Shown here one piece after another: positions 1,934-54,462 of a DNA stretch of 64,000 bases. The stretch's first letter is position 1; each line of letters begins with the position of its first letter. Made by a program: the position numbers and the translations under genes. The notes beneath the pieces are model-generated. The model did no database searches and was not told where the DNA came from. It worked only from the letters and a program-made list of their open reading frames with translations. Source of the DNA: Dictyostelium discoideum (taxonomy: Eukaryota); assembly GCA_000004695.1 (NCBI GenBank), contig CM000154.2, forward strand, positions 3,712,001 through 3,776,000, given 5' to 3'.

Positions 1934-2344
1934 ATTCTTTTAATTATATTAATAATAAAATTATTTTTATTATTTTTATTTATTTTTAAAATAGTTTTTT
2001 TACTATTATTGTTGTTTTTTTTATTGTTTCTATTATTTTCTTTTTTTTCACTTCTAATACTATAAATATTTCTATTTTTATTGTTTTTACTATATTTAAA
2101 ATTTACAAAATATAAAATAATAAAAATAACAATAATAATAATTATTTTTGAATTTAAATAATTAATTTTTGAATTTGTATAATTATGAACTATTTCTATT
2201 TTTGATCATTAAAAATAAAATAAATAAAATAAAATAAATAAATTAAATTAAATTAAATACATTAAAAATAACAATAATTAAAATTTAAAAATAAAGTATT
2301 ATTATTAATGTTTTTAAGGTTTTCCCTTTTTCTTCTTCCCTCTC

Positions 2345-2399
<55 letters not shown>

Positions 2400-2834
2400 T
2401 TTATTATTTTTATTATTTTTATTATTATTATTGATTTAAATAAATCTATTTATAATTATTTTTTTTTTTTTTTTTTTTTTTTTTATTTTTTATTTTTTTT
2501 TTTTTTAAAAAAATAAATAAAAAATTTAATATGTATATATAGAGAGAGGAGTGAATACTATTATTGGTTATTTGATAATTTAATTTGTTTTTTTTTATTT
2601 TTTTTTTTTTAAAAAATAAAAAAGGTGATTAAAACAAAAAAAAAAAAAGAAAAAAAAAAAAAAAAAAAAAAAAAATTAAAAGGTTCAAATTAAATCAATA
2701 AAATATTGTTATTTTTTATTTATTGTTGTTTTTGTTAAAAAAAAATTATTATATGATAATATTTTAATTTTTTTAATAATTTGATTAAAAAAAAAAAAAA
2801 AACAAATAAATAAGAAGATATTTTGGTTTTACTA

Positions 2835-2953
2835 TATATTATAACAATATTAANNNNNNNNNNNNNNNNNNNNNNNNNNNNNNNNNNNNNNNNNNNNNNN
2901 NNNNNNNNNNNNNNNNNNNNNNNNNNNNNNNNNNNNNNNNNNNNNNNNNNNNN
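2835..2953. other. assembly gap (N run)
   Basis: 119 consecutive N. Confidence 0.99.
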
Positions 2954-3375
2954 AAAAATTTTATAATATATATATGTGTGTATGCAAGTATAAAAATTAT
3001 CATATATAGTCAAAAGAGCAGTAAACCCATTTTTTTATCATTATACTTTATTTATTTTTAAAAAAATAAATATAAATAAAATAAAAATAAAAAAATAAAA
3101 TTAAAAACTATTTTTATTTTTAATTATTTTTTTTTATTTTGAACGATTCATTTTATTTGTATAATAAATTAAATTTTATTTTTGTTACTAAACATGGAGT
3201 GAGGGTAACCATTTTTGAAATATGATTCAAATCTTATTTTTTGTAAAAAATAAGATAATCACTGATAGATGTTATGTTAAAAAGTGTAAAAACAACACCA
3301 CAATTAATAAAAAACATTTAATAATACAAATAATCTATTGACATTTTGAAAAGTCATTTTTTTTTTTTTTTTGAG

Positions 3376-3407
<32 letters not shown>

Positions 3408-4193
3408 AATAATAATTAAATTTAAAAAATACGAATATGATAATATTATTGGTAATAGTATATTTGTGGTGAAAATAATAATGATTATTTTAATTTTTTT
3501 ATTTTATTTTAAAATTTTTGGTTGTCTATGTTTGTTAATAAAGATATTGTTTCTTTGATAAATTGTAAAATATTATAAAAAAGACCAATAGGACTAAAAT
3601 CATTTATAATAAATAAAATAAAATAAATATATATATATACACACACCACACATAACACATCACATTTCGATTTTTTTTGTTTAGAGTTATACATTTATTT
3701 AGTATATATATATATTGGGCAAGGTTAAAAAAAAATAAAAAAAAATAAAAAAAAACCAAACGAAACAAAAATAAATAAAAAAATAAAATGATGATTATTT
3801 TAAGATTAAATTATTTTTTTTCTATTTTAAGACTATATGTAAAAATAAAATTCGAAAATTAATGCGGAAATATAATAGTGGTCATTATTTTAAATATAAT
3901 TTAAATAAAAAAAAAAATAAAAAAAAAAGTGTCTTTTACTAAATTTAAATTTGGTGGATATTGCGAATGTGTATTTATTAAATTTAACTTCTATTGAAAT
4001 TTTTTTTTTTTTTTTTTTTTTTATTTTATTTTGTTTTGTTTTCAATTAATATTTTAATTTTTATTTTTTATTTTTTTATTTAATTTTAAAAAATAAAATG
4101 ATATGATTGTGATGAAGATTATGATTATGATTATGCATTTACTATTTTAGTAATTTTTTTTATTATTTTTTTTAAATTTAAAATTTAAAATTT

Positions 4194-4293
4194 NNNNNNN
4201 NNNNNNNNNNNNNNNNNNNNNNNNNNNNNNNNNNNNNNNNNNNNNNNNNNNNNNNNNNNNNNNNNNNNNNNNNNNNNNNNNNNNNNNNNNNNN
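4194..4293. other. assembly gap (N run)
   Basis: 100 consecutive N. Confidence 0.99.
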
Positions 4294-5212
4294 TTTTTTT
4301 TAGATGATTTATTGAAATACTAGTCTCATATATATATTAAATTTTATATTCTATTGTACAAAGAAATTGATCATTATCAATTTACCCTTTAAAAGATGAG
4401 TAACAAAAATAAAAAATAAAAAAAAAAAAATAAAAATAAAAATAAAAAAAAAATAAAAAAAGTAAAAAAAAAAAAAATTATATTAAATACACAAAGACAT
4501 ATTAATAGAAAGAAAAAAAAAAAAATCAAATAATTATTTGTTTTTTTTTTTTTTTTTTTTTTTTTTAGGATAATTTAGTGTTAAAATATTGTTTTTTTTT
4601 TTTTTTGGGTGTGTTAAAATTATTTTTTCCATTTTTCATCACATAATAATAAAAATAATAATAGCATATATTACACCCACATTCTCCTTCAAATATTTGA
4701 AAATATAATAAAAAAAAATACCACCCCACTCAACATAAATACTAAAATAATTAAAAAAATAATTAAATTAAATTATATAAAAAAAGAAAGAAAAACCCAC
4801 TTACAAACATCATGTGATGTGGTAGTTAAAAACATATAAAAAAATAAAATTCCTCATTAAAATGCTATAGTGTTTTTTATGTCATCTAACTTGCAATATT
4901 ATCCATCTTTGTTAATTCACATTTTTATTTAATTTTTTATTTTTTTCAAATTTATATATTTAATTTGTTTTGTTTTTTTTTATTTTGTCTTGTTTTTTTT
5001 TATTTTTGTTTTGTTTTTTTTTTTTTTTTTTTTTTTTCTCACTCAAATCGTAAGATGTAAAAAAAAAACGTTAATTATTTTAATTACCACACTGTCACTA
5101 TTTCCTATAAGCAGTATAAACATTTTTTGAAAATTATTTTTTTTAAACATTTTGAATATGGTAATAACAATATAAAAAAAAAAAAATGAATTTACAAACA
5201 AATTGGCAATTG

Positions 5213-5246
<34 letters not shown>

Positions 5247-5346
5247 NNNNNNNNNNNNNNNNNNNNNNNNNNNNNNNNNNNNNNNNNNNNNNNNNNNNNN
5301 NNNNNNNNNNNNNNNNNNNNNNNNNNNNNNNNNNNNNNNNNNNNNN
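5247..5346. other. assembly gap (N run)
   Basis: 100 consecutive N. Confidence 0.99.
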
Positions 5347-5776
5347 TAATAATAATAATAATAATAAAAATAATAATAATAAAAATAATAATAATAATAA
5401 AAATTATAGTACTAAAAAATGAAATAAAATATACTATATAAAATCGATTGATTATTTATTTATTTAATTTTTTCTTTTTTCTTTTTTTGTTTTTTTTCTT
5501 TTTTTTTTTTTTCTTTTGATCATTACAAATTATTTGATATATTACTTTTTTTGAATTTTTTTTTTTTTTTTTTTTTTTTTTTTCTTGCTCGCGAACAAGG
5601 AATACACAATTTATACTATTACTGTGATAATTTTCATTTGTTGTTTTAATTATTATTACTATTATTATTATTACTATTATTTTTTGATTTTTTTTTTTTA
5701 ATTTTTGATTTTTTTTTTTTTTTTTTTTTGGTTCCAAAAAAACCTGGAAATAAATTTTTTTTTTTTTTTTTTTTTT

Positions 5777-7423
5777 TTAATCCTTTAAGATTGAATCAGC
5801 TACATAAGTGAAACCTTCAAAGCTTGTATCTTTACCCATAGCATCACCTAAAGCACTTGTTTCAACCAAACTATCCATTGGTCTTTCTTGAGTGAAAACT
5901 GGATCAATTTGACTAATATCTGTGCCAGATTTAACTTTTGGTTTAAAGTGAACTTCAACTTCTTTTCTATCCAATTTCTCCCAGTCAATATTTTTGAACC
6001 ATGGATGTTGTTTAACTTCACCACCACCTTTAGTTCCAAGTCTTTTATCAACTTCTCTAGTTAATAACTATAAAAAAATTTAAAATTTAAATAAAATAAA
6101 ATAAAATAAAATAAAATAAAATGTTATTAATTATTAATTATTATTATTAAATATATTGTGTATACATACACCTTCTAATAATGATTTTGCTTCTGGTGAA
6201 ATATAAGTTGGAATTTTTAATTCACCATTTAAAATTTTTTGATACATTGTTGATACATTTTGAGAGTAGAAAGGTGGTAAACCAGTTAACATCTCATAGA
6301 GAAGAGTTCCAAGAGACCACCAATCGACGGCACAACCATGACCATGACCATTCAATACCTCTGGTGCTAAATACTCTGGTGTACCACAGAAAGTGAATGT
6401 ACCATCGGTTGTTTCAATCTTTTTAGATAACCCAAAATCAGTGATACAAATATGACCTTCACTATCTAATAAAATATTCTCTGGTTTCAAATCACGATAT
6501 ACAATATCTTGTTTATGTAAATGATCCAATGCTGATACAATCTCTGCTGCATAAATCTTTACTCTTGGTTCTGAAAATCTACCTTCTCTCTTTAAATGGA
6601 AAAATAATTCACCACCATTAACAAAATCTAATACCATATATAATTTATCTTTTGTCTAAATATAAATATAAAATAAAATAAAAAATAATTAATATTATTT
6701 TTTAAATTTTTATAAAAAAAAAAAAAAATAAAAAAAAAGTACTTATTACTTATTACTTACTTGAAAAGCATAATGTAAATTTACAATGAATGGATGAGAA
6801 ATACATTGAAGGATAGTTTTCTCAGATTTAGTATGATTGACTTGTTTACGAGCAATGATAGCATCTTTACGTAAAACTTTCATAGCAAAGATTTTATCTT
6901 CACCCTTTTTCTTAACTTGCATAACTTTACCAAAACTACCTTTACCAATTACATTTAATAATTCAAAATCATCTTTTGTTGCTGATTGTTTATTCTTTGA
7001 AAAAATGACTTCCTCTGGTCCTTCATCTTCATCATCATTACCATTTCCACTACCATTTGGTGAATCTGGTGAACTTGATGCTTCATTTGATGCACCATTT
7101 ATATTATTATTATCTGTATTTTTTTGTGATTCTTCAATAGTTGGTGTACCTGTTTGAGTAATTGGTGTTTGGGTAGCTGGTGCTGGTATATTTTGTTGTT
7201 GTTGTTGCTCTTTATTATCTAATGAAACTGCTGCTGTAGTCGTTTGTTGTTGTTGTTGTTGTTGTTGTGCACTATTATCTAAATTTTGTTGAGTTGGTGT
7301 TGGTGTTGGTGTAGGTGTTGATGTTGGTGTTGTTTCATCATTTTTATTTCCTTTTTTTGGTTTTCCTGCTTTGGCGGGTTTACCTGATCCTCCATTCTTT
7401 ATTTTACTTTGTCCTTTTCCCAT
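5777..7423 (-). CDS. pkgB: AGC-family Ser/Thr protein kinase PKBR1 (Akt/SGK-related, myristoylated, no PH domain), 3 exons, 479 aa
   Basis: Exons complement(6761..7423, 6170..6655, 5777..6067), with donors GTAAGT and GTATGT. N-terminus MGKGQSK is an N-myristoylation motif. Kinase motifs are [22 protein letters not shown] and the activation loop [14 protein letters not shown]. An AGC C-terminal extension carries the hydrophobic motif [10 protein letters not shown]. The spliced length of 479 aa matches PKBR1. Confidence 0.9.
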
Positions 7424-7661
7424 TTTTTTATTTTTTTTATTTTTCCTTTAAAATAAAGAAATAATCAAAAATAAATATGTAATAATAAATATAATAAATA
7501 AATTAAAATAAATAGATTTTTTTTTTTTTTTCTCTTCTTTTTGTTTTGGCTTTTGTTTTTTTTTTTAAAAAATTTTAATTTGATTTTGATTTTAAATTCT
7601 TGATTTTTGTGATTATTTTTTTAACTAAATCTAAAATTATTTAATTTAATATTAAAATTAT

Positions 7662-7692
<31 letters not shown>

Positions 7693-8018
7693 GAGAGAGA
7701 AAGAGAGTGTGTTTGAGAGAGAGTGTGTGTGTGTGTGTTTTAAAAAAAAAAAATTTTATTATTGTTTTTTAAAAATAGGTGCGTTTCTAAAAATAAATAT
7801 TTATTGAAAAAAAAAAAAAAAAAAAACCCCCCCCAAATAAAATAAAAAAAAAAAAAAAATAAAAAAACCCAAATAAAAACCCAAAAAAATAATTTTATAA
7901 TTTAAAAATTATTGATGAGAGTGATATTTAATATTTAATTGGTGATAAAATTGTATATAAAATGAAAATAACAATTTATATTAAAAAAAAAAATTAAAAA
8001 AAAATTAAAAATAAAATA

Positions 8019-8054
<36 letters not shown>

Positions 8055-8055
8055 A

Positions 8056-8093
<38 letters not shown>

Positions 8094-10018
8094 AATAATA
8101 ATAAAAAAAAAAATTTAGATAGGGTGTGATAGTGAGTTTGGTGGTTGAATGATTTTTGTGTCTGTGTTATTGGTGTGAGAAAGAGAGTGAGAAGAAAAAA
8201 AAAAAAAAAAGAGTTTGCTGAATTATATTTTGATATAATAAAAAAAAAAAAAATAATAATAATAATAATAATAATATTTATATTTTTATTTTATTTATAT
8301 TTAAATTATGATTATGATTATTGATGATTGTACGGAGATGTAATAGGTTAAATTGTTTTATATATTTATACATATTTTAAAACATTATATATATATAACA
8401 AGGTTTGTATATTGTAAAGTGGTTATAATCATCACATATTATTATTATTATTACTAATGAATATACTTTTTTTTTTTTTTTTTTTTTTTGTTAAAGGAAT
8501 TAATAATAATAAAAAAATTAAATTAAATAAAGTGGAATAAAATAAAACCAAACCCTTTTTTAAAAACTTTTTAAATAAATATATATTCCCCAATTATTAT
8601 TGATTACAGCCGCCGGGTTAAAAAAAAAAAAAAAAAAAACCAATAAAAAAAAAAAAAAAAATCAAAAAAAATCAAAAAAAAAAAAATCAAAAAAAAAAAA
8701 AAAATTTTAACTGTCTAACGCCTTTTTCTTTTTGATTTATTATAATAATTGTACAAATATGAAAATATTTTAAAAAATAAAATAAAAACAAAAAAATAAA
8801 AGGAAAAAAAAAAAAAAAGAAAAAGAAAAAAAAAAGATATAAAAAGTAAAAGAAATTGTATTTTTACTTTAATTTTCTTTTTAATTATTTTATTATTTTT
8901 TGTGGGCCGCAAGAAAAAAAAAAGAATAAAAATAAAAAAATAAAAAAATAAAAAAATAAAATAAAAAAAAAAGATATTTTTTGGAGTAGTGGGAACATGG
9001 GTGATAAAAAATAAAATAAAAAAATAGATATTTTCATTTCAATATTACCACTTTAAGATACTGCACGTGAGAAGTTACAACAATGTAGAAAAAAAAAAAG
9101 TTAAAAAAAAAAGAGAGATTTAAATAAAGTTAATCAAATTTGGGGGCTCTATTACTTTTTTATCATTTTTTTTTTTAATTAATTCTTTGGTGAATTTACT
9201 TTTTTTTTTTTTTTTTTTTGGTTTCACAATAAAAAATATTTTCCCCCATCTCACTATCAAATCGATCGGACAAAAAAAAAAAAAAAAAAAATTAAAAAAA
9301 AAAAAAAAAAAAAAAATCCAATTGTATTTCAATACAATCACTACACATCTAATAGATTGTGGAACTGTTTAATTAAATTTTATTTTTTATTATTTTTTTC
9401 TTGTTTTATATTTTTTTTATTTTTTTTTTTTTTTTTGGTTTTGTTTAAAAAAAAAAAAAAAAAATTGGAAATTTATTTTTCTTTGAGGTGGGGTGGTTAT
9501 TTAAAATTAGTTTTTTTTTTTATTATTATTTTAAATATTTTAATTATTCTTTTTTTTTTTTTTTATTACTTTAATAAAAGGGACTTTTTTTTTTTTTTTT
9601 TTTCTTAAATGAAAGAAATGGAATTGGAAATTTCCCAAAAAAAAAAAAAAATTTTATTTCTTAAAATGGACAAACTCCCAAAAAAAAAAAAAAAAAGGGG
9701 TGTAACAACAAATGTTTTTTATTAAATTAATTTAATTTATTTTTTATTTTAATTTAATTTTTTATTTTTTTTTTTATTTTTTTTTTTCTCTTTCATTTAA
9801 TACTTTTTTTTTTTTTTAAAATTTTTATATATATAAAAAATTAATTTTATCTTTCATATCATTTTTTTTTTTTTTTTTTTTTTATTATCTCTTTTTTTTA
9901 TTTTTAAAATTACATTTTTTAGTATTACTATAATTTATATCATACAAGTAAATATTAACTAATTAAAATTATTAAAACATTTTTTAAAATATGTGATACT
10001 AATTTTTTTTTTTTTTCC

Positions 10019-44291: not shown

Positions 44292-44370
44292 TTTATATTT
44301 TTAATTCAAGGACTAAGAGACCCAGAAGTTGAAACTGAGAATCGAACTCACGACATTAAAATTGCGATTC
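44292..44370 (-). repeat. ~90-bp dispersed repeat R (copy 1) carrying a tRNA B-box-like motif
   Basis: On the minus strand it reads AATCGCAATTTTAATGTCGTGAGTTCGATTCTCAGTTTCAAC...AGTCCTTGAATTAAAAATATAAA. It is about 90% identical to 49702..49790. GAGTTCGATTCTC matches the pol III B-box consensus GGTTCGANTCC. Confidence 0.6.
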
Positions 44371-44495
44371 TTTTTTTTTTTTTGAATTGGATAACGCAAT
44401 TATTATTTGCTTCTCCTTGAGATGTTAGATCTCATTTTATTTTATTTTTTTTTTTTTTTTTACAGGGTCTCTAAAAGAGGGGTTAGTTTACTTTT

Positions 44496-46079
44496 TTTTT
44501 TTTTTTTTTTTTTTTGTTTCGAATTTTGAATTGTATTATTACTTTTGATTAAAACATCTTTTTTGTCCAAACTTTTTTCTAAATCTTTTTTTATTTTATC
44601 GTCTGGTTCGTGATTGATGTTTATGACGTATTTGAATTGTTTTTTTTTTAATTGAGTTTTATCCACAATTTCGCTTATTTTTTGTAGGCATTTGTGTTGC
44701 TTAATATTTGTGGTGTTGTTTGTAATTTTCATTTTATTTTCTTTCTATTTTTTATATTTTTCTTTAAAAAGTTAAAAATCTGGAAATTTTCTGATTAACT
44801 TGGTTCCCAGNNNNNNNNNNNNNNNNNNNNNNNNNNNNNNNNNNNNNNNNNNNNNNNNNNNNNNNNNNNNNNNNNNNNNNNNNNNNNNNNNNNNNNNNNN
44901 NNNNNNNNNNATTGCGTGAAGAGGTGAGTTCCATTGTCTGCTAAATTGTAATAGCTTTAGCGAGATTAGTGAGTCTAATTTATTTTGTTCTTCTGGCCGT
45001 TGTTTTGATTTGATTCTTAATGTTTTGTTTATAACCGCTTGTGTCCTGTCCCATGCAGCTCTTTGTGTTTTAATTAGTTCACGTATGACTTGTTGTCTGT
45101 GAATTATTATTTCTTTTTCATCGTGAATGAGTTTATTTCTTTTGTGCCAGATTTTATCGAATATAATAGCTATTAAATTGGCTACTAGTGCAATTTGTAG
45201 ATGGTTTAAAATCTTCACATTCCAGGTGTGAGTGGTGTGTCCAGACTTAGTTAGGGTGTAGTTGAAGATTTCTTGTGTGTTTTTGATGTGGGCTTTGCAG
45301 TTGAAGAATATATGTTCTGAGGTCTCATCTTCCCCACACTGTTGGCATGGCATGTTGTATATTTTTGGTAGTGCTTTCAGTGTGTATCTCCATAATAGAT
45401 CTCTACCTTTCATGTTTATTATTTTTTTGATTTCTTTAAATGGAAGGTGTTTGCTATTAATTTTGGTCATTATTTCTTTTTGGCCAGGAGTTGGTATGAA
45501 TTTGTTGTGTTCAGGAGATTGAGTTGTCATCATATCCTCGTATATTTTTTTTAATTTTGGGAGGTGTTCGTAGTGTGTTTGTTTATTTTGTGGAGTTTTT
45601 AATTGGGTCCATGCTTGCTTGCATTGCCAGTGTAGTTGTAGTTGATTTTGTTTTGTTGTTGTTTTGTTGTTGTTGTTGTTTTTGAGTTCCTCTTCCCACA
45701 GTTTTATATATGAACTAGGAGTGTTACTTACTCTTTGGTGGAGGTATCTTTCGAATAACCATGCTTTCTGTGCTAGTTCTCTTGTCTTCAGGTTCCATAA
45801 GTTTAGGCCACCATTGATATAGTTGTTTTGTCTTCTTTGTAGTGAAAGAGAGTTTTTAGATTTTGTGTTGAAAACGAATTTTACGATGTTATTTTCAATA
45901 CTATTGTGTTGTGGTGTGGTGTTGATGTAAGTGTGGAACGTTAACTGAGATAGTGCATATGTTTTTGCCATTATGAGTCTGCCCATATAGGTTGATGAAG
46001 TTGAGTTCCATGTTACTAGTTTAGCTCTGATGTTGTCTGAGATTGTATTGATTTTGGATTTGATACCCTTATTGTGAAG
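44496..46079 (-). mobile_element. 5'-truncated non-LTR (TRE-type LINE) retrotransposon copy, 3' end with poly(A)
   Basis: The minus strand encodes the C-terminal part of an ORF2 (44772..46079, interrupted by gap 44811-44910) with a Cys-His knuckle CQQCGEDETSEHIFFNC. It is homologous to the C-terminal regions of the two other RT ORFs in the window (GGLNLWNLKTRELAQKAWLFERY against GGWNIWNIELRQLAQKLWIINQF). A T22 run at 44496-44517 is the poly(A) tail. The element runs into gap 46080-46179. Confidence 0.75.
44811..44910. other. assembly gap (N run)
   Basis: 100 N. Confidence 0.99.
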
Positions 46080-46179
46080 NNNNNNNNNNNNNNNNNNNNN
46101 NNNNNNNNNNNNNNNNNNNNNNNNNNNNNNNNNNNNNNNNNNNNNNNNNNNNNNNNNNNNNNNNNNNNNNNNNNNNNNN
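46080..46179. other. assembly gap (N run)
   Basis: 100 N separating two inverted retroelement copies. Confidence 0.99.
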
Positions 46180-48319
46180 TATAAAATCCACTCAAAGCTA
46201 ATAAACAATAGAATAATCCCAATACTAACGAAAGTGATCAACCACAATCAAAAAGGTTTCGTACCAGGCAGATTCATTCTAGATAATATCATATCAATGA
46301 ACGAATTAATCAATAAAAGAATTGATAAAAGAATTAACGGAATAATTACACTATATGATTTCGAAAAAGCTTTTGACTCGATCTCACACGGTTCAATACT
46401 TAGATCACTACAACACATCAACATTCCAACCAATATAATCAACCTGATAATGAATCTACTCACCAAATCTGAAGCAAGAATTGAAATTAATGGTAGAACT
46501 ACTATACCCTTTGAGATCAAAAGAGGAGTTAAACAAGGAGATCCACTATCACCCACCCTGTTCGTCCTTGTAATAGAGGCTTTAGCTAGAAAAATTTTAC
46601 AAGATGACCGAATTACTGGCCTTCCTCTAAACAACAGCAACCACAGAGAGAAATTCCAAAGCTTTGCAGACGACTCGGCTTCAATGGTCCCAGACTCTCA
46701 ACAACTTGAATTAGTACTACAACACTTCAATTCATTTTGCAAAGCCACTTCCTCAAAACTAAACATCGACAAATCTTCATCAATTCTTATATGCAACCCA
46801 GACAATACCAACCAAAGAATTCCAATATCTACAAATCCAGAAAGATACTTGGGATACTTCTTCACAGGCAAAGGGATAACAAGAAAAATGCCAGAAATAT
46901 TAAACACAATAAGATCATCCTTAGTACTATGGAAAACCACTGACTCAACAATCAAAACCAAAACCAACATCCTCAAAGCATTCGCACTCTCTAAATTAAC
47001 CTACTATTCATATGTAGAGAACTTTAAGAAAGAGGAATTAAACCAAATCAATAAATTAGTCGAATGGTTTTTATCGGCACCAAACAACAAAAATGCTAGT
47101 GGATTTCAAGTTATTAATTTAATGAGAACCAAAAGAGCAAGATACCCACTAAAAGTAGGGGGTTGGAACATTTGGAATATAGAATTGAGACAACTGGCGC
47201 AGAAACTTTGGATCATAAACCAGTTCATCCTAGCACTAGAAACCAAACAAACAAACTCATCGCATCACAAAAGCTGGGAATATCAGATCCAAAAAAACAA
47301 ATTCACATCCAGATACCTAAAAGAAAACTTAGACGAATGGAACAAAATAAGAATAAAAAAAGCAATCTTCAACAATAATCTCACATCCATAAAAAACGAA
47401 AATGGACAACCACTTTCACTGGCAGAATGGTATACCACAATTCAAGACCAAAATCCAACCATCCCTAAAACGGAATTCCAATCATCTCTAAACTTAAGAG
47501 GCTACAGCTATAATCAACTCTTCAACAACATACTGAAGATAAAAGACCCTAAAACAAGAGACACAATGTTTAGATTCCATGCCAGATGCCTTCCAATAAA
47601 CTACCTTCACAACAAACAATGCCCACTCTGCAAAGAAGATATGAGCAAAGACCCATACGGTCACCTGTTCTTCTCATGCAAGAAAACAAAACAATTCATC
47701 TATATTACCACAGGCAAAGGTAAAAACTGGCACCATACAAGAATTAGGCAAAATAACAATTTCATTAATAGAATAACTCCAAAATTGTCACCGACAGCCA
47801 AAAAAGATCAAGAAGTGAATGCAGATTACGCCAACCACAGATTCCACAAAGAATACTTTGAATGGAACTATAAAGCAATAGACTATGATCTAACCAGATC
47901 ATTCGCATATAGAAACCTAATGGCCCTTATCCTCCACAACATTTGGATTTGGATTTGCAATCAAATATACAGTGAAGATCCTTTAACAGATGAATCACTA
48001 TCATACAGCTCCCTTCTAAAGAAATGGCACAAATTGGCCCCTTTAGAATACATCAAAAAAGCAAAAGATCTGAAAAACTTATCAGCAAAAGACCATAATA
48101 ACTTCAAAGATCCTAAGATCCTTCTCACTTCAACGATCAAGGTAAGAAAAACAACAGCTAATTACTATTGTATTCCAGAATCATTTTTCCCAAATATTAT
48201 ATCTTTTGATCAATTCATATGATTAAAATAACCCTTCAGCTAAATGATAAGCCTTTAAATAAATATTAAATAAAACTCGTATTTACACAGATGGGCATAT
48301 ATCAATTTTGTTTATCCCA

Positions 48320-48356
<37 letters not shown>
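46180..48356 (+). mobile_element. 5'-truncated non-LTR (TRE-type LINE) retrotransposon copy: RT domain to 3' end
   Basis: An open frame enters from the gap: YKIHSKLINNRIIPILTKVINHNQKGFVPGR is RT motif 0/1, LYDFEKAFDSISH is motif A, KRGVKQGDPLSPTLF is motif B and FADDSASM is motif C. The C-terminal knuckle is CPLCKEDMSKDPYGHLFFSC. Stop is at 48222, followed by a 3'UTR and an A32 tail at 48325-48356. The track's GTG start at 46234 is not a real start. Confidence 0.8.
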
Positions 48357-48360
<4 letters not shown>

Positions 48361-49701
48361 GGATGTCATTTGAGCAATATCACAAACAAATTTTTTTTTT
48401 TTTTTAAAATTTTTTTTTTTTTTTTTTCCAAAGAAGGAATTTCAATAGACACAATTAAAAATTATATTTACAGTTAAAACATTCTTCAAATATACAAAAG
48501 GTAATGTTTAGATTTTCCGCCATAAGTTTAATATTAAATTAATTAAAAAAAACCTAAACTGGATATATTTAATACAAACATATTTAAATGGTGTTAGTTT
48601 TAAAAATTCAAGAAGTAGCTTTTCTTTGGTTCCTTGTTCAACTGTTTCAAAGGGTCCAATTTTGGTTGTTTCTAATAATTAAAAAATTGAAAATAAAATA
48701 AAAAAATTAATTTCACAACCACTCAAAGGAATTGAATATATATTTATTTTTAGATTTTAATTATTTGTGAGATCTAAACCTCTGTGTCATGGCAATTTTA
48801 TCACATATTAATTGTAGACCACCCGAGATTAATATTTAAATTAACATGCTGGTCCAAACTGAGAAGTATGATTTGTTAACGCCATTATGTTTCTTCATGA
48901 GAAGGATCTGAATGGGTAAAAATTTACACATTTATATCCCCATTCAAAGTATTCTATGAGGAATCTAAGATTTGGGTAGTCAATGTTGAACCTCATGACC
49001 TTTTTACATATTTGGTGGAGTTATTGGCATAATTCTGTTACATTGAGTAGGAAGTTTTTTAATTAGATAGGTTGTTAAATTCTCCTTATGAAACTTGATC
49101 TCATTTTATAATAATTTACATGGCCTCTAAATGAAAGATAGGTTGGAATTTGTTAAAGGTTTTTTTTTTCACTAAAAAAAGAAATTAATATATTTAATAA
49201 TTATTAATAAAATTTGGCAAATTGAAAAGCTGACAGTGAATATAGTTTTTATTATCTTAATAATTATTTATTATTTTTTATATAATTTTATTTTATAAAA
49301 TTTATATGGTATATATTTATTAATTTTTAACTTTATTTATTTATTTATTTATTTATACAATTTGTTAATTAGCGTTTGTAAATTTGTAATTTGAAAATTG
49401 AGTTTTTAGGAATACAGAGTTTCTGACTATTGATATTAATAACTTGTAGATTATTAAAATGGTTATTTTCCGAGATGAAAATTGGGTAAGATATTTGGAA
49501 ATTGTTGATGTTTAATAATTAAATTATCTTGTTCAATCCTAAAAAATTCTTATTTTTAATATTTAATGTTCTGGAACCAAACTAAAGTAAATATAACGAA
49601 AGTGGTCAAATGTAATGTTTATTTCTTAATTTTGGAATTTAAATTCTCTTAATATTTATAAATTTATTTATTTTTAATACCTTTTTAGGCATATAATTTC
49701 T

Positions 49702-49790
49702 TTTATATTTTTAATTCGAGGACTTATACATCTAGAAGACTGAAGTTGAAACTGAGAATCGAACTCACGACCTTAAAATTGCGATTATCT
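49702..49790 (-). repeat. ~90-bp dispersed repeat R (copy 2) with B-box-like motif, ending 29 bp upstream of tRNA-Val
   Basis: On the minus strand it reads ATAATCGCAATTTTAAGGTCGTGAGTTCGATTCTCAGTTTCAACTTCAGTCTTCT...AGTCCTCGAATTAAAAATATAAA. Flanks are unrelated to copy 1. Confidence 0.6.
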
Positions 49791-49818
49791 CAAACCATCA
49801 AAATTTATTGTTTCACAT

Positions 49819-49892
49819 GGTCGGATGGTGTAGTCGGTTATCACGGTTGCTTTACACGCAACAGGTCTCGAGTTCGATCCTCGGTCGGATCA
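49819..49892 (+). tRNA. tRNA-Val (anticodon UAC)
   Basis: GGTCGGATGGTGTAGTCGGTTATCACGGTTGCTTTACACGCAACAGGTCTCGAGTTCGATCCTCGGTCGGATCA. The A box is TGGTGTAGTCGG. The anticodon stem GTTGC/GCAAC flanks the loop TTTACAC, giving anticodon TAC. The T arm is TCGAG-TTCGATC-CTCGG, containing the B box. It is collinear with eukaryotic tRNA-Val at about 80% identity. One G-G mismatch at positions 5-68 and one G-U pair occur in the acceptor stem. Confidence 0.8.
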
Positions 49893-50090
49893 TATCTTTT
49901 AGTTTTTTAATCTTTTTTGCTAAAAAAAAAAAAAAAAAAATAAAAAACCGAAAAAACAAAGAAATAAACGAGAATTTATACATATAATAAATAAATCACT
50001 GTTATATCTTCACCGCCACATTCATTCCTCTTAATTTTACCCTTTTTTGCTCAATAAAGCAAGGGCTATCGTCCTATATACTTTTCAACA

Positions 50091-51299
50091 ATGGCTGATG
50101 ATCACTCAACTGAATTACAGTTAAATCATACAGATAACAACACAACCAATACAAATAATACCTCCACAACCTCAACAACAAAAAACAAAAGTGCAAAAAT
50201 CGACACACCTAAAAAACAAACCCCAACAAACCAACTCTCACTAAACAAAGGACTTGATAATCAATTAGATATCATTGCACCTCCATCAATCACAAGACCA
50301 CTCTCTTTCTTAGAAAAAAACAATAACACCATCAACATTAAGTGTTACTTTAATCAACCACACATCCGTGAAGAATTAACCTCAAAAGATGACACAAGAA
50401 TTCAACAAATTCACAAAAACATTCACAAACTCTTCGAAGATATACTGTCGCCATCAGCATTCAAAATAATTGGTGCAACTGCCTTCGTAAATTGCAACGT
50501 TGATAAATTAACTTCAATAATCAACCTTCAAAACCAACTTGCACTAAATATCGACAAACTCAACTATAGATTCGATATATCATCAAATGATTATGCAATC
50601 ATTAAAACATTCATTAAAACGTACTCACCCAAACATGCAAACGATGCAATTACAAACAACCTCACTAAATTCACCAGTTGTACATCAATTGAATCATTTA
50701 CTGTCACATACTCATATGCTGTTGCGTTTAAAAGCTACATTATAACATATCATCTAATTGATCACACACACAACATTGTTGATCAAAAGATCGAACAACC
50801 ATCTGGTATCACAAGATATATCAAAGCTGCAACACGTAGTGTCACTAAACACAAAATTCAACATGCAAAAAATGCAGATATGGCAACAACTATAAAAAAT
50901 GCCATCACAAACCCAAACATGAACAAAAACAATCAACCACCAAAAAACAACATTAAAACCCCACCAATCAACGAAATTGCAAATTCCAATCGCAATAATA
51001 ACTCACTTCAAAATAGTGGTTCAAAAGCTATACTAAATGAATCACTTGATATTAACAATCAATCCCAAAACAATAATGAAATTTCACACAAAAGTGATTC
51101 TTCAAATAATAATAACGGGAAAAACTCATTATCAATGAGCAATCCAACCGATCCAACAATTGTACCACAAAAACCTCTACAATCTCAACCAAACAAACCA
51201 AGTGCACCAACTCCAAATCCAATAAATACAAGAAGAAGCAGCAATGCCCTGACTACACAACCAGTCAATACTGGTGCTGCCAAACCTAGTAAGGTATGA
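50091..51299 (+). CDS. retrotransposon ORF1 protein (Gag-like), 402 aa
   Basis: The reading frame is continuous, with Thr/Asn/Pro-rich N- and C-terminal parts. It is immediately followed by ORF2 with a 4-nt overlap. Confidence 0.7.
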   Translation: MADDHSTELQLNHTDNNTTNTNNTSTTSTTKNKSAKIDTPKKQTPTNQLSLNKGLDNQLDIIAPPSITRPLSFLEKNNNTINIKCYFNQPHIREELTSKDDTRIQQIHKNIHKLFEDILSPSAFKIIGATAFVNCNVDKLTSIINLQNQLALNIDKLNYRFDISSNDYAIIKTFIKTYSPKHANDAITNNLTKFTSCTSIESFTVTYSYAVAFKSYIITYHLIDHTHNIVDQKIEQPSGITRYIKAATRSVTKHKIQHAKNADMATTIKNAITNPNMNKNNQPPKNNIKTPPINEIANSNRNNNSLQNSGSKAILNESLDINNQSQNNNEISHKSDSSNNNNGKNSLSMSNPTDPTIVPQKPLQSQPNKPSAPTPNPINTRRSSNALTTQPVNTGAAKPSKV

Positions 51300-53595
51300 G
51301 CTCAAAAATCAACTTTATAACTTGGAATTGTAGAGGATTCACTGAAAACCCAAACAATCAACACAATTCCTACCAAAAAGCTGTTGACACACCCCAACTA
51401 CTTATATCAAAACTTCCACCTCGTCCAACAATCTCAATACTCACTGAACTCAATTCATCACCATTACAAATTAAACATGATTTTCCCGATCACATCATCT
51501 CTGTCACCAAACGAGGAAATGGTGTAATCATCATTAACCATAACCCAAACACACTCAAACTCAAACACATATCAACAATTGATGGTAGAGCTATTTTANN
51601 NNNNNNNNNNNNNNNNNNNNNNNNNNNNNNNNNNNNNNNNNNNNNNNNNNNNNNNNNNNNNNNNNNNNNNNNNNNNNNNNNNNNNNNNNNNNNNNNNNTC
51701 AGCCACTTTATTTGTAATTGTAATTGAAATATTAGCAAGAACAATAAATGCAGACAATTCAATAATTGGATTACCAATTTCACCCAATCCACAAATTAAA
51801 ATCAAAATTTACCCAATTTGCAGACGACTCTACAACATACAACATCAACTACGAACAACAACAACAATCAATCAAACATTTCGATAATTTCTGTGCTTCA
51901 ACATCATCATCTTTAAATTTTGACAAAAGTGCAATAATAGAAATCAACCCCCACAAAATCACTGATAAACACATAATAAACAACATTCCACAATCAAAAA
52001 GAATTCCAATAACCAAAAAAGATCAATCAGAAAGAGTTCTTGGCTATTTCTTTAATCATAATGGTTTACATAGGAAATTACCAGAAACAATGAAAACACT
52101 GTTTAAATCATTAGTGCTATGGAAAACTAGTGGTACAACATTAAAAACAAAAACAACCATCATAAACACCTACTCACTATCACCAATAACATATTTATCA
52201 TACCTTGAAGAATTTACAAAAGATGAAGAAATTCAAATTAATAAATTAATCTCATGGTTTATGAATTCTCCCGCAAATTCTGAATCACCAACTCTCAATA
52301 CCAATTCCATTGAAAACAACACATCAACCATCCATTCACGTGCAAAAATACCTTTGATGTGTTATGATAGATCATTAAAACCATTAAAAGAAGGTGGTTG
52401 GGGTATGTGGAATATACAATTACGTCAAGTTGCTCAAAAGATTTGGATATACAACAGATTCTTACAAATGCATAAATCTGCAAACAATTCAATATACATG
52501 ATAAGTTGGATGGATCAAATCATCAACAAATCAATCTCTTCTCCATACCTTATAAAAATAAAAAAAGAATGGGAAAACTATGCAACTCAAATTGGACATC
52601 TAAAAGATAAAGTTCAAATCCTACAACCAATATTAACAAAAAACCAACCCTCTCAAACATTAAACACAAATAATATTTCACTACCACCAACACTCAAAGA
52701 AATCTACTCGACAATACTAAACAATCACCAATGCAAATCAAAAGACTATATTGGCAAGAAATATTCAGATCTACTTCTTACTTCGCACCAACAATCAATA
52801 CAACTATTATGGAAATACACATACGACCAACTTTTTGTCAAAATTCAAAAATTAAAAGATCCAAAAGGCCGAGATACAATGCAAAGATTCCATGCTAGAT
52901 GTCTTCCGATTAATCATCTACACAACAAAGTTTGCCCCATTTGCAACAATGAAATGAATAATGATCCCTATGGTCATTTGTTTTTCAATTGTCAGCACAC
53001 AATCAACTTCATTAACCACGACAAATTAAAATATTTTATATATAAAAATTGCAATGGAAACAAAAACTGGTCACTAACAAAAAACCAAACAACAAAATTA
53101 TACACACTCATCTATAAACCACAAACAAACAACAAAGCATTTAAACCAGATCCAACTATCAATATTAATTTTCATTTTGCAGAAAACGCACAATATAAAA
53201 AATACAGGTTCAACTGGAATTATATAAACACAAATCTTGATCTAGTCAGAACACATGCATATTGGAACATAATCTCATTAGTTATTCACCAAATATGGAT
53301 ATGGTTATGCAAATCATTATTTGACATCAATATAACTCAATCAATTGATAATTGGAACAACCAAATAAACAACACAACACTAGATTATGATATATTAAAA
53401 TCAAAATGGCACAAGCTAATAAGATTGGAATATTCAAGAACTTTATCAAACTTTAACCAATACTCAATTAAAAACAACCTCACAAAAACTAAAAAAGAAA
53501 CCCAATGGTCCGAAACCATCAAAAAATTTAAAAAAGAATGGAGCATAAACACAAATGAACCAATTCCAACAATTACACCACCAATTAATTATTAA
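51296..53595 (+). CDS. retrotransposon ORF2: apurinic-endonuclease-like domain + reverse transcriptase + C-terminal Cys-His knuckle (interrupted by assembly gap)
   Basis: The N-terminus KINFITWNCRGF is the APE/EEP nuclease start. After the gap, RT motif C is FADDSTTY. The C-terminal knuckle CPICNNEMNNDPYGHLFFNC is collinear with the 46180..48222 copy. Confidence 0.8.
51599..51698. other. assembly gap (N run)
   Basis: 100 N inside ORF2. Confidence 0.99.
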
Positions 53596-54462
53596 TTACC
53601 TAATCTAAAATATAATACTATTTTAAATTCACAAAAACTAAAAAACCTAAAATAAATAAATAAAAATAACATACTAATTGTATACTACAATAGTTTATTT
53701 ATATCAAAAAAAAAAAAAAATTTTTGCTAAATCTACCTTATTATAGTTCTTGCTACCGATTCATGCAAGTTTCACTAATTTTGCATGTCATTCAAGCATG
53801 TATCATTACAAAACATTATTTTTTATTTTTTTTAATTTTTTTTTACAATCCAAAACACATAATTTTTTATTTTTAACAAATAATAACAAAGAAAAAAAAA
53901 AAATGACGTCACCCCCATACAAATCCAATACACCTTTTTCGACACCTAAATTTTAATTATTCACATTTATTATTTATAAAAAATAGTTTAATAAAAAAAA
54001 AAAAAAAAAGAAAGATAATATTAGGAAATAAAAAAAAAAAGATTATATTAATTATTAAATTTTATTTACCAAGAAAATGATTTTTTTTTTTTATGTCCTT
54101 TCATAAATTATTTTTTAAATTTTCAGACTTTTTAATTTTTCGTTTTTAAAATTTATTTTATTTTTTTTGTAGATATTTAATTTCTTGTGTTTATTCAAAA
54201 TGTCATTGTTGCTAATTTAATAATTTTATTTTGATATTTTTGTTTTTTTAAATTTTTAAACACAACAAAAAGCATCAAAACTCAAAAATGTTCATGATCA
54301 AAATAAAATTCTCTGAAAAATGTTTGATTTGTTTTTTTATTTTTTTTTATTTTTTTTTTTTTTAAAAAAAAAAATATCGGTTATAAAAAAAAAAAAAAAA
54401 AAAGTTATTTTTGAAAAAGATAAAAATAAAAAGTTTTATTTCTCTTTTCTTTTTATAAAAAA

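Follow-up and report, generated by a model that had tools for sequence, protein, structure and literature searches.

Among the retrotransposons of Dictyostelium discoideum that carry no long terminal repeats (LTRs), TRE3-B has already been described together with its preference for sites 3' of transfer RNA (tRNA) genes, and the family has been catalogued genome-wide. It was found that 39 of 43 TRE3-B copies lie 3' of tRNA genes, at distances of 34–188 bp, the range for TRE3-A being 14–228 bp (PMC5006619). TRE3 elements insert in the same orientation as the tRNA gene, possibly with reference to an internal or external B box (PMC5911963). The present study deals with a stretch of 64,000 nt of D. 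discoideum DNA (assembly GCA_000004695.1, contig CM000154.2, positions 3,712,001–3,776,000, forward strand), which is called the window throughout and whose own numbering is used for coordinates. The window very probably carries one TRE3-B copy, a non-LTR element of the L1 clade, inserted 32 bp downstream of a tRNA-Val(UAC) gene and in the same orientation. It shares with the described TRE3-B elements a near-identical sequence, two overlapping open reading frames (ORFs), the order of APE nuclease, reverse transcriptase (RT) and zinc knuckle, a poly(A) tail, a reconstructed length of about 5.3 kb and the position downstream of a tRNA gene. There is no difference in kind; this copy has an unassembled interior of 1.6 kb, a 1-bp frameshift and a distance of 32 bp as against 34–188 bp.

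Other systems offer further points of comparison. TRE3-A (formerly Tdd-3) has the architecture and the targeting side seen here. A TRE3-A-like protein, P0011, shows about 39–43% identity to TRE3-B in ORF2, and the RT regions share about 67–72% of their nucleotides. TRE5-A and TRE5-B are non-LTR elements of the same host which target tRNA genes and have the ORF2 domain order of the present element, but their insertions are found about 50 bp 5' of the tRNA gene, in the opposite orientation. In TRE5-A targeting, the ORF1 protein binds TFIIIB; according to the literature the ORF1 proteins of TRE elements show no similarity to one another. Skipper-2, a Dictyostelium chromovirus of the Ty3/gypsy LTR type, uses an overlapping target 8–23 bp downstream of D. 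discoideum tRNA genes, and since it belongs to the LTR retrotransposons and has an integrase, the likeness is convergent and not homologous. Target-primed reverse transcription is presumably common to L1 and TRE elements. Mammalian L1, a member of the same clade (PMC5911963), also shares the APE-type nuclease, RT, poly(A), duplications, 5' truncation and 5'-end heterogeneity; it differs in showing no targeting to RNA polymerase III (pol III) genes, and TRE ORF1 is unrelated to L1 ORF1p.

Structure and boundaries of the element

Six TRE3-B copies were compared, namely the copy in the window and those designated L001, L006a, L006b, L008 and L009, drawn from one further D. discoideum assembly and from Logan contigs. 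L001 belongs to another strain (GCA_054883475.1, CM142511.1), and L002, a Logan contig, served as the reference for gap size. The features of the tRNA gene and of the element are as follows.

49819–49892, plus strand: tRNA-Val, anticodon TAC, the pol III target (ARAGORN; Rfam RF00005, 53 bits, E=1e-10)
49871–49881, plus strand: B-box region of tRNA-Val, AGTTCGATCCT
49897–49918, plus strand: T-runs T4, T6 and T6 3' of tRNA-Val, read from the sequence
49914–49924, plus strand: target-site duplication, 5' copy, TTTTTGCTAAA
49925–53720, plus strand: TRE3-B element as assembled, 3,796 bp including 100 N
49925–50090, plus strand: 5' untranslated region (UTR), a variable A-rich head followed by the conserved CGAAAAAACAAAGAAATAAACGAG..., from the alignment of six 5' ends
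50091–51299, plus strand: ORF1 ('gag'), 402 amino acids (aa)
51296–51598, plus strand: N-terminus of ORF2, aa 1–101, with the start of the APE nuclease domain
51599–51698: assembly gap of 100 N standing for 1,629 bp
51699–53595, plus strand: C-terminal part of ORF2 with the second half of RT motif B, FADD, the RT C-terminal region and the zinc knuckle
52933–52992, plus strand: zinc knuckle CX2CX10HX4C, CPICNNEMNNDPYGHLFFNC
53596–53705, plus strand: 3' UTR, 110 bp
53706–53720, plus strand: poly(A) tail, 15 A
53721–53731, plus strand: target-site duplication, 3' copy, TTTTTGCTAAA

When the 5' junctions of the six copies were aligned, the flanks were unrelated and similarity began at a variable A-rich head followed by CGAAA(AA)CAAAGAAATAAACGAG, which places the 5' end of the window copy within 49922–49942. 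A search for a target-site duplication returned the 11-mer TTTTTGCTAAA. With both strands of the 64 kb searched, its only two occurrences are those at the junctions, where it abuts the A-run at the 5' end and the poly(A) tail at the 3' end. Homology to the five other copies and this duplication together define the element as 49925–53720, starting 32 bp past the tRNA gene. A flanking duplication of variable length is a trait of TRE3 elements; it measures 11 bp here and about 8–11 bp in other TRE3-B copies (TCATCATTTC in L001, ATTCAAAAA in L008 and AATCTTTT in L009). The empty target site is predicted to read ...AATCTTTTTTGCTAAATCTACC... with a single 11-mer.

The other TRE3 traits, which are two ORFs, an ORF2 with APE nuclease, RT and zinc finger, short UTRs and poly(A), are also present, the domains being read with the help of L002. 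The ATG of ORF2 at 51296 overlaps the TGA of ORF1 as ATGA (51296–51299), and ORF2 lies in the -1 frame relative to ORF1, as is typical of TRE3. An initial annotation of this DNA had given the ORF1 start at 50091 and the ATGA overlap correctly; the 5' end, which it had put near 49960, moves to 49925. It had also called the element full-length and had listed an APE nuclease, RT motifs A–C and a zinc knuckle in ORF2. The knuckle and motif C (FADD) are visible in the window sequence. By comparison with L002, the gap at 51599–51698 replaces 1,629 bp and removes ORF2 aa 102–644, and with them GDFN and SDHNP of the nuclease as well as motif A and the opening half of motif B of the RT. Most of the nuclease is hidden in this way, and RT motifs A–C cannot have been seen in the window since the gap covers motif A and half of B. 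In the ORF2 of an intact relative Pfam recognises Exo_endo_phos at aa 8–231 and RVT_1 at aa 502–733; the ORF2 pieces visible in the window gave neither a nuclease nor an RT domain with Pfam.

L002 itself contains an unbroken ORF1 and 983 aa of ORF2; it matches the window with 99.5% identity on one side of the gap and 99.1% on the other. Relative to L002, the window has an extra A in the run 51804–51807 which shifts the ORF2 frame just before FADD and which could be a sequencing error. An uninterrupted ORF1 and ORF2, the mark of a retrotransposition-competent copy, is not found in the window. Because of the gap and the frameshift the copy cannot be shown to be full-length or intact, and the incomplete assembly and the frameshift raise the possibility that it is inactive. 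For annotation purposes it should not be labelled full-length or active, 1.6 kb of it being an assembly gap.

Assignment to the TRE3-B family

The C-terminal part of ORF2 shows 84–100% identity to D. discoideum proteins, with 98% to the best match, P0001. Another protein, P0037, falls in the same 90% cluster as the ORF2 matches and corresponds to DDB_G0291686, whose dictyBase product is 'TRE3-B ORF2' (Table 2, PMC12405889). P0037 is 97.5% identical at the amino acid level to the translation of 52261–52971, while the next family, that of P0011, the most abundant relative, reaches 43.5% in the P0037 comparison. The best match is therefore to a member of the TRE group and not to some other family. 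In ORF1, 400 of 402 residues are identical to the GenBank gag protein AAD43056.1 (UniProt Q9Y1H6). When the ends in the window were combined with the interior of L002, a length of 5,325 bp was reconstructed, including the variable A-run and the tail. The consensus lengths are 5,279 bp for TRE3-B, 5,229 bp for TRE3-A and 4,734 bp for TRE3-C (Table 1, Spaller et al. 2016, PMC5006619), so that the reconstructed length fits TRE3-B and TRE3-A alike and excludes TRE3-C.

A homology search with ORF1 gave matches of the same family only. No Pfam domain was found in ORF1 and no relative in the PDB by sequence search, and an AlphaFold2 model built without an alignment had a predicted local distance difference test (pLDDT) score of 36; for these reasons ORF1 offers no structural clue. 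Exact look-ups of the AX4 proteins P0002, P0003 and P0022 and of the ORF1 in the window matched no contigs.

The tRNA-Val(UAC) gene and the geometry of insertion

ARAGORN, run on the whole window, called a single tRNA gene, tRNA-Val(TAC), at 49818–49893, and together with Rfam it bears out the gene ending at 49892 that had been proposed initially. The acceptor stem has one G.G mismatch. The first two T-runs after the gene (49897–49900 and 49903–49908) are upstream of the insertion and are preserved, and the third is overlapped by the duplicated target of TRE3-B. Runs of T terminate transcription by pol III, and those following tRNA-Val are presumably terminator signals. The real insertion point is 32 bp after the tRNA, just beyond the first of these presumed pol III terminator T-runs.

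Four of the six TRE3-B copies lie 22–67 bp downstream of a tRNA gene, from the end of the tRNA to the start of the element.

Window copy: tRNA-Val, 32 bp, same orientation
L006a, 5'-truncated at the ORF1 ATG: tRNA-Phe(GAA), 22 bp, same orientation
L008: tRNA-Thr(AGT), about 41 bp, same orientation
L009: tRNA-Gln(TTG), about 67 bp, and 30 bp past the external B box GGTTCGATTC, same orientation

The D. discoideum genome measures about 34 Mb. With 418 tRNA genes (PMC5911963) in a genome of this size, the probability that a copy would by chance lie no more than 70 bp downstream of a tRNA gene and in the same orientation is about 4e-4, and about 5e-13 for four of six copies. The initial annotation had proposed a TRE3-type element that lies 3' of a pol III gene and shares its orientation, and both the TRE3-B identity and the geometry support this; a consistent geometry is seen in the other copies, at tRNA-Phe, tRNA-Thr and tRNA-Gln. 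The distance of about 100 bp that it had given is revised to 32 bp, which is at the short end of the published range. TRE3 elements are expected about 14–300 bp downstream, with '~100 bp' as the typical value, and in the same orientation, and the copy in the window falls within these limits.

Upstream of the tRNA gene, the minus strand at 49733–49775 contains a stretch, AAGGTCGTGAGTTCGATTCTCAGTTTCAAC, which resembles the variable loop, the T arm (B box) and the 3' acceptor strand of a tRNA. The 5' half is absent, and neither ARAGORN nor Rfam made a call there. This stretch could be the remnant of a tRNA gene, or else a solitary B box that was once targeted by the minus-strand TRE3-like remnant to its left, which is described below.

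Alternative explanations

A number of observations weigh against reading the locus as one TRE3-B insertion directed to tRNA-Val. In the first place, a single uninterrupted element is deduced from the matching duplication and has not been seen as such, 1.6 kb being hidden. The two sides of the gap might come from different TRE3-B copies, through a scaffolding chimera or a collapsed tandem or nested array, and in that case 49925–53720 would not be one element. Gaps of 100 N occur within or beside every retroelement of the window (at 44811, 46080 and 51599), which indicates that repeats broke the assembly; moreover, TRE tandems at a single tRNA gene have been reported (PMC5391098), and tandems were also seen here in L008 and L011. 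On the other hand, the same 11-mer, unique to these sites in the window, stands at both ends, as is expected of a single insertion, and both halves are about 99% identical to and collinear with the intact contig L002. A composite origin is, on this evidence, unlikely, though it survives better than the other alternatives.

Secondly, the name TRE3-B derives from the dictyBase label given in a paper and from sequence identity, and not from a direct alignment to the named consensus records. The label could then be wrong and the element could belong to another TRE subfamily (TRE3-A, -C or -D, or a TRE5), all the more so as TRE3-A (5,229 bp) and TRE3-B (5,279 bp) are too close in length to be separated by size. 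Against this stand the 97.5% identity to the 'TRE3-B ORF2' product compared with 43.5% to the most abundant related family, and the mere 23–28% identity of the third family of the window. TRE3-C is excluded by the element length, and a TRE5 would sit upstream of the tRNA gene in the opposite orientation (PMC5911963). A misassigned subfamily is accordingly very improbable.

The remaining observations concern the relation to the tRNA gene. The spacing of 32 bp does not reach the canonical '~100 bp' and misses the 34-bp minimum published for TRE3-B by 2 bp, which may reflect no more than the way in which boundaries are defined. No clear external B box was found 3' of tRNA-Val; a weak CGATTC core at about 53757–53762 was noticed by eye only and was not counted as one. 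No tRNA gene was present in the 1.8–2 kb of upstream flank of L001 and L006b, the latter being part of an inverted fragment pair, and according to the literature TRE3 targeting has never been dissected experimentally. That the adjacency is coincidental and involves no targeting is nevertheless hardly credible, in spite of these two of six copies without a tRNA gene in the flank examined, as the other four stand beside four different tRNA genes where about 4e-4 per copy would be expected, and 39 of 43 published TRE3-B copies lie 3' of tRNA genes (PMC5006619).

Neighbouring retroelements and composition of the window

The tRNA-Val gene sits in a small cluster of retroelements, and the following elements and remnant lie to the left of it.

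44368–46079, minus strand: element of a third TRE family (P0057 cluster), 23–28% identical to both TRE3 families, with a gap at 44811–44910 inside it
46180–48357, plus strand: TRE3-like copy of the P0011 family (a cluster of 79 members), 97% amino acid identity over aa 371–1059
48868–49020, minus strand: remnant of 51 aa, about 50% identical to aa 915–965 in the C-terminal part of the TRE3-A-like ORF2

The element at 46180–48357 ends in a poly(A) tail at 48327–48357 and has lost its 5' part in the gap 46080–46179; it is probably TRE3-A. The locus L010 has a member of the P0057 family whose start lies about 48 bp 5' of tRNA-Met(CAT), in the opposite orientation, and because of this geometry the family is taken to be TRE5-type. 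Published TRE5-A primers did not match the minus-strand element at 44.4–46.1 kb. The 5' ends of the two elements both point into the gap 46080–46179, and for this reason the gap probably hides another tRNA gene, flanked by the TRE5-type and the TRE3-A-like element. The remnant at 48868–49020 is a degenerate TRE3-like fragment; the T-run at 48390–48427, which lies about 450 bp further left, may represent what was once its poly(A) tail.

The comparison loci yielded observations of their own. In L001 a 1.13-kb insertion (4200–5329) is nested in the TRE3-B copy, with 12 bp of element sequence duplicated on its two sides; it resembled none of the other loci or proteins compared here. In L008 a 'mini' TRE3-B of about 60 bp (about 7010–7080) directly follows the poly(A) tail of the TRE3-B copy and consists of the first ~26 nt of the element fused to the last ~20 nt and poly(A); a product of extreme internal deletion, inserted in tandem, may account for it. 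Two TRE3-B ORF1 fragments are arranged tail-to-tail beside tRNA-Phe in L006 (3622–4557 on the plus strand and 5719–4577 on the minus strand), and two tandem TRE3-A-like copies occupy L011 (1–7308). L006 and L011 both illustrate how one target site is used repeatedly, as the literature describes.

With a GC content of about 0.2 the window is very AT-rich, and since it includes six runs of N, each exactly 100 long, it is a scaffolded draft. Further gaps of this kind, at 2854–2953, 4194–4293 and 5247–5346, lie within extremely AT-rich DNA (GC 0.12–0.14). A repeat search over the whole window gave nothing beyond low-complexity AT repeats. An Rfam scan of the 64-kb window at the gathering threshold returned no match, not even tRNA-Val, which in a 500-bp scan scored 53 bits against a gathering score of 29. 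The miss in the whole-window scan seems to be a filter artefact, the speed filters failing in AT-rich DNA, and further small RNAs of the window may be missed for the same reason.

Proposed mechanism and significance

The following course of integration may be envisaged. The element RNA would encode ORF1 ('gag', of unknown fold) and ORF2 (APE nuclease, RT and zinc knuckle). Since ORF2 is in the -1 frame and begins in an ATGA overlap with the ORF1 stop, it would be reached by -1 frameshifting or by termination-reinitiation at the ATGA; a -1 frameshift has been stated for TRE3-A and TRE5-A (PMC5911963). The ribonucleoprotein would be directed to a tRNA gene bearing pol III factors, the most likely cue being the B box with its TFIIIC complex, read from the downstream side. 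Recognition of TFIIIC at the B box by TRE3 elements has been put forward as a hypothesis in the literature. The nuclease could then nick the DNA a few tens of bp beyond the B box, the RT would copy the polyadenylated RNA from the nick by target-primed reverse transcription, and a staggered cut of the second strand would give rise to the 11-bp duplication. This scheme of a nick, priming of the RT and a second cut is generally known for L1-clade elements, and the enzymology suggested for TRE3-B is modelled on it. The footprints expected of target-primed reverse transcription are seen, namely poly(A), the duplication, 5'-end heterogeneity and the 5'-truncated copy L006a.

Among the copies associated with a tRNA gene, all four begin 30–52 bp beyond whichever B box, internal or external, is closest, a relation that is correlative only. 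It is conceivable, if rather doubtful on the basis of five loci, that TRE3-B measures its insertion point from the nearest B box and not from the tRNA gene as such.

The fifth of these loci is L001, where the TRE3-B copy (2056–8442) lies inside a polyketide-synthase-like gene with ketoacyl-synthase domains and without a tRNA gene within 2 kb. A cryptic B-box-like sequence, GATCGATTC, is found about 57–67 bp upstream of this insertion point.

As the locus presents a known element in a known configuration in a model organism, its value lies mostly in correct annotation. Measurement from the nearest B box would refine the existing hypothesis in the literature as regards the internal versus the external B box. 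If this is true, solitary B-box/TFIIIC sites could be occasional mutagenic off-targets of the element.

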